IMG/VR virus record: IMGVR_UViG_3300021256_000056
Location: 32,001-96,000 of that record
DNA: 64,000 nucleotides
Reading direction: 5' to 3' (one strand)
DNA from: a virus
Lineage: Duplodnaviria; Caudoviricetes
Part shown: piece after piece, positions 7,415 through 28,250 of the stretch
How the letters are laid out: every line of letters starts with the position of its first letter
Numbering within the stretch: position 1 is the first letter of the stretch
Program-made: the position numbers and the translations under genes
The notes under the pieces: generated by a model
What the model saw: the letters and a program-made list of their open reading frames with translations, nothing else
Told to the model about the DNA's origin: nothing
Databases searched by the model: none

Positions 7415-8140
7415 CTATTCATCTTTGTCTTTTAGCGTTTTCTTTTTTCGATGAAACCTTTTACTATTCTTATTTAATGAGCCAAAGTTGGGGGTTAGGC
7501 TATGGCAATTAGGGCACAGTAGTTGCAAGTTTTCAATACGGTTATTTGTACAATCACCATCAATATGGTGAACTTCGAGAGGAACATTCCCCGTAAATTC
7601 GTTAACTTCGCCCCAGTGACATTTTTCGCATTTATTGTCGTGAAGGCTCATTAAGTATTCCTTAATAAACACTGGCACCTGTGAAGCTCCCCTCAAAAAA
7701 TTTTCTCCCCCTAGCCACCTTTCTAATTTGCTTATTTTTGGTGGGGTTTCATTTGTATATTCTTCGTATTCTCTTTCTGGAAACTTTGAACGTATGGAAT
7801 CTGAAATTTTTTTCTTGGTTTCAAAACTGCGTGGGCCACGTTTTACGTTATTATATTTCGCGGCACATGACGAGGAACAAAACTTATTGAATCTTTGTTC
7901 AAAACTCAATTTTCTCCCGCATTCTTCACAATACCTGGGATTTTTATCATATGTTTCCCTTGTTTGTTTGTTTTGATAATATTGTCCAGTAATATTCGCT
8001 TTCTGTTTTATCCTATTAATAAAACGCCAAGAAGCGCCATTGGGCCTCCTTCCAAAATAATTTATAACCTCTTTCTCGGAACAACATGCCTCGAACGCAG
8101 ATATTATTTCTTCAATAGAAATCTCTTCGACCTTTTTCAT
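7415..8140 (-). CDS. free-standing HNH endonuclease
   Basis: CEKC..LEVHHIDGDCTNNRIENLQLLCPNCHS. Confidence 0.9.
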   Translation of the reverse strand: MKKVEEISIEEIISAFEACCSEKEVINYFGRRPNGASWRFINRIKQKANITGQYYQNKQTRETYDKNPRYCEECGRKLSFEQRFNKFCSSSCAAKYNNVKRGPRSFETKKKISDSIRSKFPEREYEEYTNETPPKISKLERWLGGENFLRGASQVPVFIKEYLMSLHDNKCEKCHWGEVNEFTGNVPLEVHHIDGDCTNNRIENLQLLCPNCHSLTPNFGSLNKNSKRFHRKKKTLKDKDE

Positions 8141-10101: not shown

Positions 10102-10216
10102 TCGGGGAAGAAGGAATCGAACCTCCGCTAACGGCACCCAAAGCAATTTGACGCTGCTGTTAGTTTTCAATACTGAAAACATTTAAAACGTCGTGCTACC
10201 ACTACACTATTCCCCA
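10102..10216 (-). tRNA. tRNA-Pro(UGG) with 44-nt ACAGCA-module insert at 29/30 (10145-10188)
   Basis: Removing the insert gives acggc-tttgggt-gccgt; G72/A73 Pro identity. Confidence 0.8.
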
Positions 10217-10223
10217 AAATTTG

Positions 10224-10340
10224 TGAGGAGGATGGGACTCGGACCCATGACCCACGGGTTAAAAGCCAAGGTGAGGTTGCTGTTAGTTTTCAGTACAGAA
10301 AACGTTTTATACGTTGCTCTACCAACTGAGCTACCTCCTC
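10224..10340 (-). tRNA. tRNA-Lys(UUU) with 44-nt ACAGCAA-module insert at 29/30 (10268-10311)
   Basis: Removing the insert gives acggg-cttttaa-cccgt. Confidence 0.82.
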
Positions 10341-11010: not shown

Positions 11011-11018
11011 ATATTGTG

Positions 11019-11421
11019 TGGAGATGGGCGGACTCGAACCGCCGTTTTTCAAGCTTGCAAACTGCTTTCTACGCGCTTAGTTTTCTTTATGATTCGTTGG
11101 GCACTGGTGGAAAACACACCTGAGTACTCAATATATCATTCTGGAAACGTAGCCAAACCAGACGAATGAAACTGGCCTGCCGCTCTCGATTTGATGATGC
11201 CCTCATATTGTGAATTCAACCAAGACCAAACATTCACGAGGACAATCGTCCCGACACATCCTAGGTGCCGATGGATTAGGCTTATTTGCTTAGCAAATTA
11301 AGCGGCGATTGCATAGGTGTTGTTGCCAACTAATTTTTTTGATATTTGTTTAAAGGCTAAAAATCAAAACGCCTGCGTGCTTACAATCCTCATAGATTGA
11401 AATCAAAACCAAAACATCCCC
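11019..11421 (-). ncRNA. ssrA: tmRNA, tag GNNTYAIAA
   Basis: 5' ggggatg, 3' ggcggttcgagtccgcccatctcca, internal ggcaacaacacctatgcaatcgccgcttaa. Confidence 0.93.
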
Positions 11422-12372: not shown

Positions 12373-12505
12373 ACAAGGCAGCGTGTATGCATCACCTTCT
12401 GACCTTGTAGAACGGACTTATATACATACCGTAACATTTTCGTAGTATGTAATTTCATCTGTTTTGTGTCTCCGACGAGGCTCGAACTCGTGACCCCCAC
12501 ATTAA

Positions 12506-13341
12506 CCTACCCAATATAGTTGCCTATACCATCTTACGATGTTTGAGTTTGGACCATTTCTTATCCATGCCACTTCGTGGTTTAGGTGGTGGTGTATGGC
12601 CTCTACACATTTATGCAAAAAAGCAATTTAGCCCGACGTTTTCCCAGGGGGATGTTCGTCGAATTAGCCACCATTCACGACAAGGGTTTCCCCTCGTGTG
12701 CTCCTTTCTTAGATTCACGTAAACATGAAATGCATAACCCGCTTTTAGTTTCCCTATGAAGCGGTTTTCCACATTTTTTGCACACGTGTTTGTACGTGTG
12801 GGTGTGTGTGGTTGTTTTAACCCCCTTCATATTTTTCTTTCCAGCGTAACTATCTGTTTGTGAATGGCAATTAGGACACAAAATCACTAGATTGTCGAGT
12901 TCATTATTAAAATGGTCTCCATCTTTATGATGAACTTGCAACGTTATGCTTTTACCATGCCACTCAGAAATTCCGCATTCTGGATTTTCGCACTTATATT
13001 CTTTCAGCCCCAATGAAATTAGTTTTTTCATTAATTCCGAAGATTTTATAAGTTTGTCTTTAACAAAAAAATCCTCTTTGTCTAGACCGTTGTGATTTTT
13101 ATTTCCGATGTTCGATTTTTGTCCAGTGAAATGTGAGGTATCTAGGTCGTATTCTTTCACGTATTTGTAAAACGTTCTATAATTACCACCAACAGGTTTC
13201 CATCCCACAGCACGACAAAAATCAGCAACACTAAAAACACGTTTACATATCTCTATTGCCTCTTCTTTACCAATTACATTTTTTGTCATAATAACACTTT
13301 TATAATAAATAGTGTTTAATTGGTAAAAGTAAGAAGATTTG
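12506..13341 (-). mobile_element. group I intron (IC3-like) with HNH ORF, inserted after U34
   Basis: 5' exon ends U, intron ends G; P/Q/R/S-like aattcgacgaa, cgtcgggctaaat, gtgtagaggc, aagaaatggtcc. Confidence 0.88.
12675..13289 (-). CDS. intron-encoded HNH homing endonuclease
   Basis: LQVHHKDGDHFNNELDNLVILCPNCHSQT. Confidence 0.9.
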   Translation of the reverse strand: MTKNVIGKEEAIEICKRVFSVADFCRAVGWKPVGGNYRTFYKYVKEYDLDTSHFTGQKSNIGNKNHNGLDKEDFFVKDKLIKSSELMKKLISLGLKEYKCENPECGISEWHGKSITLQVHHKDGDHFNNELDNLVILCPNCHSQTDSYAGKKNMKGVKTTTHTHTYKHVCKKCGKPLHRETKSGLCISCLRESKKGAHEGKPLS

Positions 13342-13399
13342 AAGTGTGGTGCTCTACCAACTGAGCTACGGAGACTTTCCTTAAATTACCATAAAATTG

Positions 13400-13561: not shown

Positions 13562-13661
13562 AAAGGTAAAATCTTCGAAGATTGCTGCAGCGGAAGTCCC
13601 CGAGTCGAACGGTGGTTACCTGGTGCCCCTTGCATACAATACTGCAACAAATTTTACCTTT
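13562..13661 (-). ncRNA. structured RNA candidate with T-loop
   Basis: aaggtaaaat/attttacctt and ttgttgcag/ctgcagcaa stems enclosing ccgttcgactcgg. Confidence 0.5.
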
Positions 13662-13662
13662 G

Positions 13663-13738
13663 TGGGTGTCCTGAGACTCGAACTCAGAAACCTCTTGTGT
13701 ATCAGACAAGTGCTCTCAACCAATTGAGCTAGGCACCC
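13663..13738 (-). tRNA. tRNA-Ile(GAU)
   Basis: Cloverleaf, loop ctgatac. Confidence 0.9.
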
Positions 13739-13748
13739 AGAAATTTTG

Positions 13749-14466
13749 TGGGACAGGAGGGACTCGAACCCTCACCCTCCTTAGAGGACTGGTTCCTCGT
13801 ACCACTATGGCTTTCGCCACCAAAACAACTTCGAACTTGCGGGTTGGATTTTCAAGGCTTGTACACCCCCAGGTTGTCTTGTTTGTGGTCTGGACTGTAT
13901 CTTAACCATATTGAAATCTAGCTAGTAAACATCCTTATACTTATAGTCTCGTAGTTTAATGTGGGTCACGCGACCACCCCTAGCTCATATAAGCATGTTA
14001 TTTCAACTTAGGCTCCTCCTGTATCTCGTCTCTACACACTGTCTATTATTCTATATCTGCGGTCCCTTGTTCTCAGGCTATATTCATTACTGAAGTATAG
14101 TCTTGCAGTATAGATTTTAACATTGGCTCGGCATTAGCATATTATTCCTATTGGGGTTTTACAAGTTTCGCTTATAGTTTTATTCCGATATTCACGGTGT
14201 CCCACAAAACCAATATTTGAATAACTTAGCTTTCACCGAATTAGGAAGGTTCTACATAACGGGTTTCCCCGCGTCCACAGGCTACTCTCCCGTTTGGGAT
14301 TGTTTACCTTATCTATCACGCTTCGCAGCGTCCTGTGGTATGCACTCAAGTTAAACGGGCGCCTATCCGCATACAGAGTGTCTCAGTCTGTAATCTCCAA
14401 GTATAGGTTATCAGTATAAGCCCGTTGTTCATAAGACCAGCGCGTCTACCATTCCGCCACTGTCCC
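13749..14466 (-). tRNA. tRNA-Leu(UAG) split by group I intron
   Basis: Exons 14433-14466 and 13749-13797 join to ctggt-cttagga-accag. Confidence 0.9.
13798..14432 (-). mobile_element. group I intron after U34, no ORF
   Basis: U at 5' splice site, terminal G; core segments shared with introns at 26726 and 27550. Confidence 0.88.
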
Positions 14467-14605
14467 AAAATTAGATAAGGGTGTATAATGCTGCCCTTGC
14501 TATATTGTGTGGCAACCCTTAAATGAGATTTTCCAAATACCTTTGTCTGCCATATTCTCAGGTGCTCATTACTGTAGCATTGATTATGTATATGAAGGTT
14601 ACCAC

Positions 14606-14691
14606 TGGTGCGGCAGGTGAGACTCGAACTCACACGGGATTGCTCCCACCACCCCCTCAAAGTGGCGCGTCTACCATTCCGCCACTGCCGC
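14606..14691 (-). tRNA. tRNA-Leu(GAG)
   Basis: Cloverleaf, loop ttgaggg, encoded CCA. Confidence 0.9.
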
Positions 14692-14857
14692 ATAAATATA
14701 TTGTTTTTAAATGGCCCTGGAATCTGTATTGACCACTAAGGGGGTAATCCTCCATCTACAGAATCTGTACCATCAGGTTTATCCCATTGGTTCCCTAAGA
14801 CCCATTCTTTTTCTCGGTGCGTGGTGACACCTCAAACCGTGAATATATACCTAGTTG

Positions 14858-15952: not shown

Positions 15953-16074
15953 AGCTGATGCAAGGAATCGAACCTCGGTCTGCGGCTTGGAATGCATTTC
16001 TTGATTTTTGCTGTCCGTAACCTTGTCAGAATACCTTATTTGAAAACGCTGTGCTACCACTACACCACATCAGC
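15953..16074 (-). tRNA. tRNA-Gly(UCC) with 51-nt ACAGCAA-module insert at 29/30 (15996-16046)
   Basis: Removing the insert gives gcggc-attccaa-gccgc. Confidence 0.8.
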
Positions 16075-18240: not shown

Positions 18241-18325
18241 CAGGCGCTGGAGGATTCGAACCCCCGAGGAATTTAATCCTGCTGGTTTTGGAGACCAGTG
18301 CCTTCGACCGCTCGGCCAAGCGTCT
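18241..18325 (-). tRNA. tRNA-Trp(CCA) with long variable arm
   Basis: ctggt-ctccaaa-accag then caggattaaattcct V arm. Confidence 0.85.
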
Positions 18326-19028
18326 GTATATATTCCATTAATCCTTTTTTATCGAATGGTAGTCCGTAATGCTTAAACCATTTTCTTATAGCATTATCCG
18401 ACACTCCAAAAGACTTTCCGACTTGTAAAAAACTTCTTTTAACTAAAAAAAGATTAATTAAAGTTTCTTTTGATGGGTGATTTCTTTCCCATGCGCATTC
18501 TCGCGCTTCTATCCAATCTTCTTTGTTTGTGTGTCTTTTCTTTACTATGGTTTTAGTAGTGGATTCGTATTTATTTGAATTTTTTCCTGCATAAGTATCC
18601 GTTTGTGAATGACAATTTGGGCATAATAACATGAGATTTTCAATCCTATTATCGTCATGTATACCATTGATATGGTGGAGTTGTAATGATATCGGTTTAC
18701 CATTCCATTCGCAAATTCCACATTGTGGATTCTCACACTTATTTTCTTTTAAGCCACACTCAATTAGTCTTTTTTTTAGCCGACTTTTGTTTGTGTATAA
18801 ACTATGTTCAACTAGAATGTCATCCATGGGAATTTTTTCTCTGTAGCTTTTTGTCATTCGTTTATAAGAGAATCTTAATTCCAGCCCGAGTTCCTTTGCA
18901 AGCGCCCTTACCTCTTTATAATCTTCCCCGCCAACGTTTTCTATTCCGAGTCTATGACAAAGGTCCAACATATTAACACATTTGTCGTAATTTTCAATTA
19001 ACCTGTCTATCGCGTATTCTCGATTCAT
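18273..19028 (-). CDS. free-standing HNH endonuclease
   Basis: LQLHHINGIHDDNRIENLMLLCPNCHSQT; C-terminal HTH-like segment; reads into tRNA-Trp. Confidence 0.9.
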   Translation of the reverse strand: MNREYAIDRLIENYDKCVNMLDLCHRLGIENVGGEDYKEVRALAKELGLELRFSYKRMTKSYREKIPMDDILVEHSLYTNKSRLKKRLIECGLKENKCENPQCGICEWNGKPISLQLHHINGIHDDNRIENLMLLCPNCHSQTDTYAGKNSNKYESTTKTIVKKRHTNKEDWIEARECAWERNHPSKETLINLFLVKRSFLQVGKSFGVSDNAIRKWFKHYGLPFDKKGLMEYIQTLGRAVEGTGLQNQQD

Positions 19029-20051: not shown

Positions 20052-20140
20052 GCTGGCCAGGAAGGATTCGAACCTCCAACCTTTGACACATCTAAAGCCT
20101 TTAGGGCAGTGCCTGCTCTCCCATTTGGAGCTACTAGCCA
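20052..20140 (-). ncRNA. pseudo-tRNA with expanded anticodon loop
   Basis: Intact acceptor, D and T arms; ggcac/gtgtc stem encloses 19 nt. Confidence 0.5.
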
Positions 20141-22137: not shown

Positions 22138-22154
22138 GTTTTTCGTAAATTTTG

Positions 22155-22226
22155 TGCTCCATACAGGAATCGAACCCGTCTAAGAACGTTTTAGGGACGC
22201 CCGCTCGGCCACTGAGCCAATGGAGC
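22155..22226 (-). tRNA. tRNA with CUA anticodon (amber suppressor candidate)
   Basis: gctccat/atggagc acceptor; ggcgt-ccCTAaa-acgtt; C33. Confidence 0.65.
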
Positions 22227-23982: not shown

Positions 23983-24089
23983 TTGCGATGGTAGGATTCG
24001 GACCTACGCTCTGAAACGATGTTTCATATCCTTGGCGCCCCAGGAAACACGGGAGTTGCCCCGCTGCTCTGACCACTGAGCTACACCGC
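23983..24089 (-). ncRNA. tRNA-like RNA with three hairpins replacing the anticodon arm
   Basis: gcggtg acceptor, gctcagtggtcagagc D arm, gtaggtccgaatcctac T arm. Confidence 0.6.
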
Positions 24090-24124
24090 AAAGTAAATAT
24101 ATGATAAAAGTTAAAGGTTTCTTA

Positions 24125-26674: not shown

Positions 26675-27289
26675 TGGCCCAGGCGGGACTCGAACCCGCA
26701 CGGCCCTTGCGGGCCAGCAGATTTTCTTACCACTATAGCTTTCACTACCTAAACAACTTCGAACAATCGGGTTGGATTTTCAAGGCTTTATACCCCCAGG
26801 TTGTATAGTTTGTGGTCTGGACTGTATCTTAACCATATTGAAATCTTGCAAGTGTCATACGCATAGTAAACTATAAACATTATAGGTGGAGTCTCTCAGG
26901 TTCCGCTCTTCCTATAAGAGGCTATAGTCTGTTGCCGTAATTCTATTTCAACTTAGGCTCCTCCTGTATCTCGTCTCTACACACATACGTTGCGGGGATG
27001 TCCCGAAAACAAGGCTACTTGCTGCCCTCTGCTACCTTATTAGGGTAGATAGCGTTGCAATTACTTGTTCGTACTTGGCTCGGTATTACCAACAGCGTTA
27101 ATTTTCTCCACTCCATAGAATTCAACTCATTGGCAGTAATCTTCCAATGCTTCACATCTACTTCAACGCTTCCTTGAATTTTAACCTGCTAAGGTTTCAC
27201 CGAATTAGGGAGGTTCTACATCTCTTGTTTCCAAGAGCGCACTCAAATTTTCATTAAGTCTGCCGCGTATACCATTCCGCCACTAGGCC
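26675..27289 (-). tRNA. tRNA-Leu(UAA) split by group I intron
   Basis: Exons 27256-27289 and 26675-26725 join to gcaga-cttaaaa-tctgc. Confidence 0.92.
26726..27255 (-). mobile_element. group I intron after U34
   Basis: U/G splice boundaries; shared core. Confidence 0.9.
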
Positions 27290-27512: not shown

Positions 27513-28250
27513 TGGTCCCTGTAGGACTTGAACCTACGACCATCTGATTCGTACCACCATAGCTTTTACTACCAAAATTGATTACATGAACAAATCCTAA
27601 GTACCGTATCAGCCTTAAGCCGATTATGCCTACATTATGACCGTCCTACTATAACGGTGTAATCAGTCCTAACATTGCTTCATCCTATTAGGGCACTTTA
27701 ATTTTGTTTGTGGTCTGGACTGTCTCTTAACCATATTGAAATCTTGCAAGTAAGTATTGATGTTTCGAGCATCTACCTCGCTCTTATCGAGCGGATATTC
27801 CATTACCTTCGGAAAATACAATTTCAACTTAGGCTCCTCCTGTATCTCGTCTCTACACACTGTCTAAACAAATAATTGAAATGTAGCTTAGATGTTCTAT
27901 TCTGTAATTCAAACATCAACGACTTTTCATTACATTTCCAACTAACATCGTACCTACAGACGCGATGAATTCATTTGTTTTAACATTGGCTCGGTATTAG
28001 CATATTTGGACTGTCTTCTTACACATAGATTCTAAACGACTGCTATCATTACTGAAATTCAGTTAACTATGTACTACTGTTGACAATACACCAACTAATT
28101 TAGACGATTATCCGATATATTCCTGTACATCCAAACTATAGCTTTTACCGAATTAGGGAGGTTCTACATCCAAGGTTTCCCTTGGTGCACACAATTTCTT
28201 TTCAAAGAACTAATGAGTCAGGTGCTCTAACCAAACTGAGCTAAGGGACC
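27513..28250 (-). tRNA. tRNA-Ile2(CAU) split by group I intron
   Basis: Exons 28213-28250 and 27513-27549 join to ctga-ctcataa-tcag; ggtccct acceptor is ileX-like. Confidence 0.85.
27550..28212 (-). mobile_element. group I intron after U36
   Basis: U/G splice boundaries; shared core. Confidence 0.88.

Follow-up and report, generated by a model that had tools for sequence, protein, structure and literature searches.

A probable IC3 group I intron with apparently exchanged domains in the sole canonical tRNA-Leu(UAG) gene of a very large ruminant-gut phage

Can a tRNA gene of a phage be split by a group I intron that is still intact, and from where would such an intron have come? All phage introns then known lay in protein genes, despite the many tRNA genes that phages carry (Hausner, Hafez and Edgell, 2014, PMC3984707), and a full-text literature search turned up no report of a phage tRNA gene split by a group I intron. 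For bacteria, 21 kinds of intron-split tRNA have been reported, all IC3 and including Leu.3Ug, Arg.3Ug, Ser.3Ug and Lys.3Ug (Williams, 2020, preprint). The locus considered here lies in a window of 64,000 nt, the whole stretch of DNA that was analysed, which covers bases 32001-96000 of a 195,095-base IMG/VR virus record (CheckV completeness 53%). In the first 28 kb of the window, 35 tRNA genes and one tmRNA form an array on the minus strand; phage-type replication genes (primase, SbcC-like nuclease and thymidylate synthase) come after it. The window's DNA was found mainly in one animal-gut metagenome, intron cores of relatives are abundant in RNA libraries of sheep and cattle gut, and related contigs reach 354-393 kb; the host of the intron is a very large phage of the ruminant gut. 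A blastn search with the gene against 50,697 GenBank phage records gave zero matches. With good confidence we read the locus as an intact IC3 group I intron in the sole canonical tRNA-Leu(UAG) gene of this huge phage, with catalysis, an order of events and a mode of mobility that we infer and set out below as a proposal.

The split gene and its group I core

The initial annotation had placed a 635-nt, ORF-less group I intron after U34 of a tRNA-Leu(UAG) gene, and this reading stood. The size is exact (Table 1), no sense-strand ORF longer than 38 aa lies inside the 635 nt, and the joined exons form an 83-nt RNA that ARAGORN identifies as tRNA-Leu(tag), a canonical cloverleaf with a long variable arm. 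Since the joined exons fold as a normal tRNA-Leu(tag), the intron site falls between U34 and A35. The discriminator is A, and CCA is not encoded. Across the 195-kb record, ARAGORN with introns allowed found no intron-less canonical Leu(UAG) gene, and the split gene is the sole canonical tRNA-Leu(UAG). The same program misses the split gene when run without an intron search; when introns are allowed, a 635-nt insert is detected, though at a shifted site and in a gene wrongly named tRNA-Ile. Standard tRNA finders thus miss or misname intron-split genes of such phages. A 115-aa ORF overlapping the intron was rejected as spurious; its start lies within the upstream tRNA-Leu(GAG). No maturase-like ORF was found in or beside the intron.

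Table 1. Coordinates of the split tRNA-Leu(UAG) gene, of the modelled elements of its intron and of the two paralogous split genes in the window (intron positions in brackets)
Feature	Window coordinates	Strand	Details
tRNA-Leu(UAG) exon 1	14466-14433	-	34 nt; starts GGGACAG, ends CUGGUCUU; acceptor, D arm, 5′ anticodon stem, C32 U33 U34
Group I intron	14432-13798	-	exactly 635 nt; starts AUGAAC, ends GUGGUACG
L1 module (7-79)	14354..14426	-	closing helix 7-13/73-79, two inner helices, 16-nt loop AUUACAGACUGAGACA
Guide sequence (83-89)	14344..14350	-	homologous position in all relatives; covaries with exons
Inserted three-way hairpin, P1 to P2 (95-158)	14275..14338	-	GCGA loop; -23.4 kcal/mol, z -4.4
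P2 with GAAA tetraloop (161-174)	14259..14272	-	161-165/170-174; all six P2 pairs covary in family
P3 5′ strand (184-188), J3/4, P4 5′ strand (193-199), J4/5, P5 5′ strand (202-208)	14225..14249	-	P3 184-188/414-418; P4 193-199/300-306; P5 202-204/295-297; receptor half CUAAG in P5 5′ strand
P5 extension (209-291)	14142..14224	-	fold no better than shuffles, z 0.07
P5 3′ strand with UAUG (292-297), P4 3′ strand (300-306), P6 5′ strand (311-314)	14119..14141	-	P6 311-314/390-393
P6 extension (315-389)	14044..14118	-	z -4.4
P6 3′ strand (390-393), J6/7, P7 5′ strand, J7/3, P3 3′ strand (414-418)	14015..14043	-	
P8 5′ strand with receptor half CCUAAG (419-433)	14000..14014	-	P8 419-433/516-529
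P8 extension (434-515)	13918..13999	-	no bridging by independent contigs
P8 3′ strand with UAUGG (516-529), J8/7, P7 3′ strand (536-541), P9.0 5′ strand	13885..13917	-	P9.0 5′ strand ACCAC (544-548); P9.0 544-548/628-632
P9 and extension (552-612)	13821..13881	-	P9 552-558/606-612; all seven P9 base pairs covary
P9b hairpin with GAAA loop (613-626), P9.0 3′ strand GUGGU (628-632), G635	13798..13820	-	P9b 613-617/622-626
tRNA-Leu(UAG) exon 2	13797-13749	-	49 nt; starts AGGAACCAG, ends CUGUCCCA; A35 G36 G37 A38, 3′ anticodon stem, long variable arm, T arm, acceptor
tRNA-Leu(UAA) paralogue	26675..27289	-	530-nt family intron 26726-27255, same site 34/35
tRNA(CAU) paralogue	27513..28250	-	663-nt family intron 27550-28212, after position 36

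Intron positions equal 14433 minus the window coordinate. From an alignment of 28 family members, RNAalifold recovered P2, P3, P4, P5, P6, P8 and P9, to which P7, the pseudoknot, and P9.0 were added by hand. In this hand-built core (P2 to P9b with the P3/P7 pseudoknot), 96.1% of cells are paired across the 28 members, and pairing falls to 30-41% of cells when partners are slid by 1-3 columns. Compensatory changes on both sides occur in 24 of the 60 core pairs, and none of 500 shuffles matched the observed measures. The tRNA-Leu(UAG) intron keeps 59 of the 60 pairs, a count biased towards this copy because the structure was drawn on it. Changes private to this copy preserve pairing (615/624 from A-U to G-C; wobbles in P3, P4 and P8), as selection on the fold predicts.

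Within P7, G401, G403, A404 and C405 (A402 being bulged) pair with G538, U539, C540 and C541. The pairs flanking the bulged A, G401-C541 and G403-C540, are invariant across the 28 members; each of the remaining two deviates in a single member, and in L025 the change is compensatory, from C-G to G-C (relatives are given by label where they need telling apart). The terminal G635, at window position 13798, stands just before the 3′ splice site. GAAA occurs at 166-169 (L2) and 618-621 (L9b), and 11-nt receptor motifs are present in P8 (CCUAAG/UAUGG) and P5 (CUAAG/UAUG). The Azoarcus intron has the same arrangement of two GAAA loops and two 11-nt receptor motifs. By analogy with that intron, the L2 GAAA probably docks in the P8 receptor and the L9b GAAA in the P5 receptor. 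The likeness extends to the primary sequence: core strings of the phage intron match those of the Azoarcus tRNA-Ile(CAU) intron (IC3, "Ile2.5Ug" in Williams' seed alignment) element by element, the common strings being AAUUCGG.GAAA, CUAAG/UAUG in P5 and P8, GCCGAGCCAA, GUAGAGAC, AGUCCAG, and GAAA in L2 and L9. Moreover, the window's tRNA(CAU) intron has the same site and the same GUG guide as the Azoarcus intron; its gene and the split tRNA-Leu(UAA) gene are adjacent. The Azoarcus intron, which has been shown experimentally to self-splice, differs in being about 200 nt long, in lacking peripheral insertions and in its site, 36/37.

The model thus describes a complete, structurally intact, Azoarcus-like IC3 core of the bacterial tRNA type, and structure, covariation and guide-sequence modelling together back the assignment to group I. 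We conclude that the IC3 group I intron at the classical site, 34/35, is real and apparently functional. The Rfam model RF00028 scores it at 18.2 bits, below the gathering score of 50; relatives also fall far below the threshold, and even compact ones are missed. RF00028 is weak on bacterial tRNA introns too, for which 18-20 bits have been used (Williams, 2020, preprint).

Guide sequence and choice of splice site

Modelling of P1 and the internal guide sequence, which had been proposed as a check, yields a short but consistent pairing with the exons. P1 comprises three exon pairs only, namely G86-U34 (the wobble at the 5′ splice site), A87-U33 and G88-C32, and U89 opposes U31 as a mismatch at -4 of a kind present also in Ser(UGA) members. 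P10 is formed by C83, U84 and U85 with A35, G36 and G37 of the 3′ exon. Across the family, the guide covaries with the host exons: GAGU accompanies 5′ exons ending in ACUU (hosts Leu(UAA), Leu(UAG), Ser and Arg), GUGU accompanies those ending in CAU (CAU tRNAs), and GGUU accompanies those ending in GACU (Leu(UAA), site 33/34). The last case comprises Leu(UAA) introns at L017:7024-7612 and L034:4113-4539, which lie one base upstream, between 33 and 34, and in which GAGU has become GGUU with the alignment position unchanged.

The three bases 5′ of the guide track the 3′ exon in the same manner, with UUU facing AAA in Leu(UAA), UUC facing GAA in Ser and AG facing CU in Arg. Both Leu(UAG) introns with a guide on record carry CUU facing AGG (CUU followed directly by GAGU). 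C at that P10 position occurs in none of 11 Leu(UAA) introns, all of which have U. UUU facing AGG could also form wobble pairs, so the C improves the pairing but is not required for it; its presence in both Leu(UAG) introns would reflect a single event if the two share descent. A GAGAC in the loop of the L1 module was considered as an alternative guide reaching five exon bases, and was judged coincidental because the loop stays unchanged where the exons differ and also in a free-standing copy.

We propose the following course of splicing. The tRNA array would be transcribed from the minus strand, and C32-U33-U34 would pair with G88-A87-G86 to form P1, the U34-G86 wobble marking the splice site. 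A free guanosine, bound at G403-C540 of P7, would attack after U34; A35-G36-G37 would pair with U85-U84-C83 to form P10, and the terminal G635 would take the guanosine site. Attack by U34 after G635 would then restore the anticodon loop CUUAGGA.

Similarity to the tRNA-Leu(UAA) intron of bacteria and plastids is evident at this level: that intron also occupies site 34/35 of a leucine tRNA, with CUU before it, a U-G 5′ splice site, a terminal G followed by A, and an IC3 core. In contrast, the phage intron resides in a UAG tRNA, measures 635 nt as opposed to roughly 250, and adds domains in L1, before P2, and in P5, P6, P8 and P9. It also departs from the compact size of IC3 introns (about 200-300 nt), with six inserted or extended arms.

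Peripheral domains and autonomy of folding

Large peripheral insertions had been noted from the first, and they are real when this intron is set against its compact, about 200-nt relative in tRNA-Ser (L012). Relative to that intron, it has a 73-nt L1 module, a 64-nt hairpin before P2, and longer P5, P6, P8 and P9. The arms of P5, P8 and P9 fold no better than shuffles, while that of P6 does (z -4.4). No match to the pre-P2 hairpin was found elsewhere among the sequences compared, making it unique to this copy.

The L1 module (folding z -2.2) represents a recurring unit of about 60 nt with covarying helices and the invariant 16-nt loop AUUACAGACUGAGACA. It also fills L1 of a Leu(UAA) intron (L009:9650-9731) and P9 of another intron (L355:1075-1160), and stands free between genes at L012:4960-5040, within a GC stem followed by a T-run. 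The hairpin with the AUUACAGACUGAGACA loop additionally heads a different, larger P8 module in L352 (4700-4900), L350, L354 and L051. A comparison of the module with Rfam gave no match. In Leu(UAA) introns at L027:11022-11700 (minus strand) and L038:2520-2760, L1 holds a different structured insert of about 110 nt, which reads GGGAGAAAUAUCG...GGUGAAAGUCCAAC...CGAUAUUUCUCU. We tentatively suggest, as an idea that is more likely to fail than to hold, that IC3 introns of huge gut phages are fast-moving elements that re-target different tRNA genes and even the neighbouring sites 33/34, 34/35 and 36/37 through 2-4 guide nucleotides and swap peripheral domains, and that the L1 module may be an autonomous functional RNA, acting for instance in protein binding or as a tertiary clamp. 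As a natural series of guide re-programmings and domain swaps, the family is useful for studies of how ribozymes change target.

Insertions between the 5′ splice site and P2 total 137 nt, which could slow folding or require a protein. Splicing might then proceed only with the help of a chaperone or maturase-like factor supplied by phage or host, the insertions blocking autonomous folding. The 73-nt and 64-nt insertions and the long P5, P6, P8 and P9 arms speak for such dependence, as does the recurrence of the L1 module both in introns and free-standing, which a protein-binding element might show. However, the intron retains each of the tertiary-contact motifs that mark the self-sufficient Azoarcus type and the neighbourhood offers no maturase-like ORF, so that we regard obligatory protein assistance as unlikely.

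A more drastic reading of the same features would be a decayed relic that has lost splicing, leaving tRNA-Leu(UAG) a pseudogene. The intron's length is roughly three times the minimum, some of its insertions are private, its P1 is short, and some relatives look damaged or chimeric (the L040 intron ends in A; L030 and L046 mix tRNA halves). Decay is nevertheless hard to square with a core in which 59 of 60 pairs are intact, as are the nucleotides at both splice sites, the G-binding site and the two tetraloop/receptor motifs, with private substitutions that are compensatory, and with exons that make a perfect cloverleaf in the sole canonical Leu(UAG) gene of the record; we hold this reading to be very unlikely.

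Kinship, origin and movement of the intron

Exact core motifs of 21-25 nt occur three times in the window (0 expected from shuffles), and exact repeats of 39-41 nt are common to its introns in Leu(UAG), Leu(UAA) and CAU genes. Searching IMG/VR with family motifs gave six loci in one scan and 41 in another. Where flanks were read, hosts are Leu(UAA), Leu(UAG), Ser(UGA), Arg(UCU) and CAU tRNAs, with a few non-tRNA settings. The locus and about 30 relatives show that large animal-gut phages carry group I introns in several tRNA species, often several per genome. Further Leu(UAG) cases include L012 (complete) and L066 (3′ part only); a "terminal repeat" of L066 was considered as its upstream half and rejected, the contig starting inside the intron and the repeat being part of another intron, one in tRNA-Lys. 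A scan of species-representative genomes with a 15-nt pattern (the 3′ intron end plus AGGA) gave no bacterial Leu(UAG) example among the matches listed, almost all of which are chance. Eight loci (L074, L092, L094, L101, L062, L064, L070 and L073) have the same 3′ architecture, AGUCCAGACCAC...GAAA hairpin...AUAGUGGUAAG, followed downstream by apparently protein-coding sequence with no tRNA half, and the family may reach beyond tRNA genes.

Bacterial tRNA introns (Arg.3Ug, Ser.3Ug, Lys.3Ug, Thr.3Ug; Williams, 2020) share with the phage family UGC...GUAGAA around P2, ACCAC/GUGGU in P9.0, the GCGAAAGC hairpin before the terminal G, and a spread over several U34 tRNA species. They sit in chromosomes, whereas the phage family resides in tRNA arrays of phages of about 350-390 kb, in several copies per genome and with peripheral modules swapped between copies.

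The initial annotation held this intron to be closely related to that of the Leu(UAA) gene, near-identical in its 3′ domain, and this is correct for one part of it. Over its last 127 nt, which include the stretch originally quoted, the intron shares 89.8% identity with this genome's Leu(UAA) intron, and among the sequences found the P9 extension is common to that intron only. Outside those 127 nt, the two introns have only family-wide core blocks in common, and the 5′ half is not closest to Leu(UAA). In P5′-P4′-P6 (13 of 31 positions differ) and P6′-J6/7 (19 of 37), few family members are more distant than the Leu(UAA) intron. Over 216 core columns the nearest relative is the L012 Leu(UAG) intron, with 33 differences. 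Arms recur across hosts elsewhere in the family as well, the P5 arm of the window's CAU intron being found also in two Leu(UAA) introns and the P8 arm of its Leu(UAA) intron also in a CAU intron. An intron phylogeny, originally suggested as a check, gave an unresolved core tree (2 of 25 branches starred; the bootstrap did not settle), on which host labels change 12 times (minimum 7; shuffles 17.8). Recombination makes a single intron tree unsuitable. Because arms and the 3′ part are shared across hosts and the nearest relative differs by block, the family behaves as a mosaic from which no single donor can be named, and on these comparisons the tRNA-Leu(UAG) intron itself reads as a mosaic.

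Did the intron arrive in a pre-existing Leu(UAG) gene, or did the gene arise with its intron? One could imagine a duplicate of the intron-bearing Leu(UAA) gene with an A36-to-G change, in which the intron never moved: the site (34/35) and the GAGU guide are the same in both, and the 3′ domains are 90% identical. Yet at 67% identity the window's Leu(UAA) tRNA is no nearer to the mature Leu(UAG) tRNA than Leu(CAA) is (68%), and the L012 Leu(UAG) tRNA reaches 70%, while the best intron-less phage Leu(UAG) genes are 86% identical overall, with positions 8 to 44 identical and the D and anticodon arms matching; more than 119 intron-less phage genes have this anticodon arm. These exon identities, together with a 5′ intron half that points away from Leu(UAA), favour intron gain and render duplication highly improbable. 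The presence of family introns in the Leu(UAG) genes of L012 and L066 suggests that the gain may predate this genome. The earlier suggestion of transposition between isoacceptors thus survives in a general sense only, in that the Leu(UAG) gene gained an intron; the Leu(UAA) intron as donor is supported only in part, the 3′ quarter alone being closest to it. The order of events that we propose is that an existing Leu(UAG) gene took up one member of an intron family that moves among phage tRNA genes with loops reading (A)CUU up to the splice site, so that the guide change would have been small or nil, and that the 3′ part of the intron was later exchanged with this genome's Leu(UAA) intron or came from a source common to both.

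Contigs of one DNA run and three metatranscriptome runs were compared with window positions 13640-14700. Exact matches to 13640-13907 and 14016-14700 come from independent contigs of the likely source sample, which do not bridge the repeated core between these stretches (13908-14015); the P8 arm might in principle derive from a sister intron. A larger mis-join is argued against by exons that match each other and a guide that fits them. Of all readings we give least credence to an assembly chimera joined across the core blocks identical in three introns, which the exact 39-41-nt repeats, the contigs breaking at core blocks and intron joins in related contigs (L030, L046, the false terminal repeat of G001) might suggest, but against which stand 5′ and 3′ exons that pair perfectly in acceptor and anticodon stems, a fitting guide, a 3′ domain 90% rather than 100% identical to the Leu(UAA) copy, and exact contigs leaving at most the P8 loop to be swapped. 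No RNA contig covers the exons and no exon-exon joint was found, the many apparent joints being relatives with other peripheral loops. One 172-nt contig from an RNA library matches 14247-14418 exactly and may be DNA carry-over.

Repeated intron cores of this kind break assemblies and can fake terminal repeats. In L030 (Arg/Leu) and L046 (Ser/other), the 5′ half of one tRNA is joined, across a family intron, to the 3′ half of another. G001 (L226/L227; 354,809 bp, rated 100% complete) has a 99-nt "direct terminal repeat" that occurs in two distinct introns, of which one is present as the 5′ part of a Lys case and the other as the 3′ part of a Leu(UAG) case. Such joins reflect either recombination or mis-assembly at intron repeats, and circularity calls for such phages need care.

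No endonuclease ORF lies inside the tRNA-Leu(UAG) intron, so any present-day movement would need an enzyme acting in trans or reverse splicing. Two HNH genes, both above Pfam cut-offs, stand free in the array (7415-8140 and 18273-19028), a weak HNH match lies inside a fourth intron (12675-13289), and the L013 relative has an HNH ORF within L1. Homing of the cyanophage psbA intron is reportedly helped by a trans-acting enzyme. By analogy, either homing by an enzyme in trans or reverse splicing into loops with CUU at the site would fit. The introns of T4 td, nrdB and sunY and of Bastillevirinae resemble this intron in being phage-borne, mobile and often HNH- or GIY-YIG-linked; unlike it, they interrupt protein genes.

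The array holds further elements of note (all on the minus strand). The fourth group I intron, more divergent, spans 12467-13375, with an RF00028 match of 34.4 bits at 12527-12722 and a 204-aa ORF (the one with the weak HNH match); a tRNA 3′ half comes next. A tRNA with anticodon CUA, which reads TAG, lies at 22154-22226. The tmRNA (11016-11421) encodes the tag GNNTYAIAA, and a similar tmRNA directly follows the intron-split tRNA-Ser of L012. Four tRNA matches of 108-122 nt (10102-10216, 10224-10340, 15953-16074 and 23983-24090) contain short inserts below group I intron size. Finally, a tRNA-like gene at 20053-20140 (Rfam 31.2 bits) has normal acceptor, D and T arms and an irregular anticodon region of 31 nt, and is called Leu(tag) with a 12-nt insert by ARAGORN when introns are allowed.
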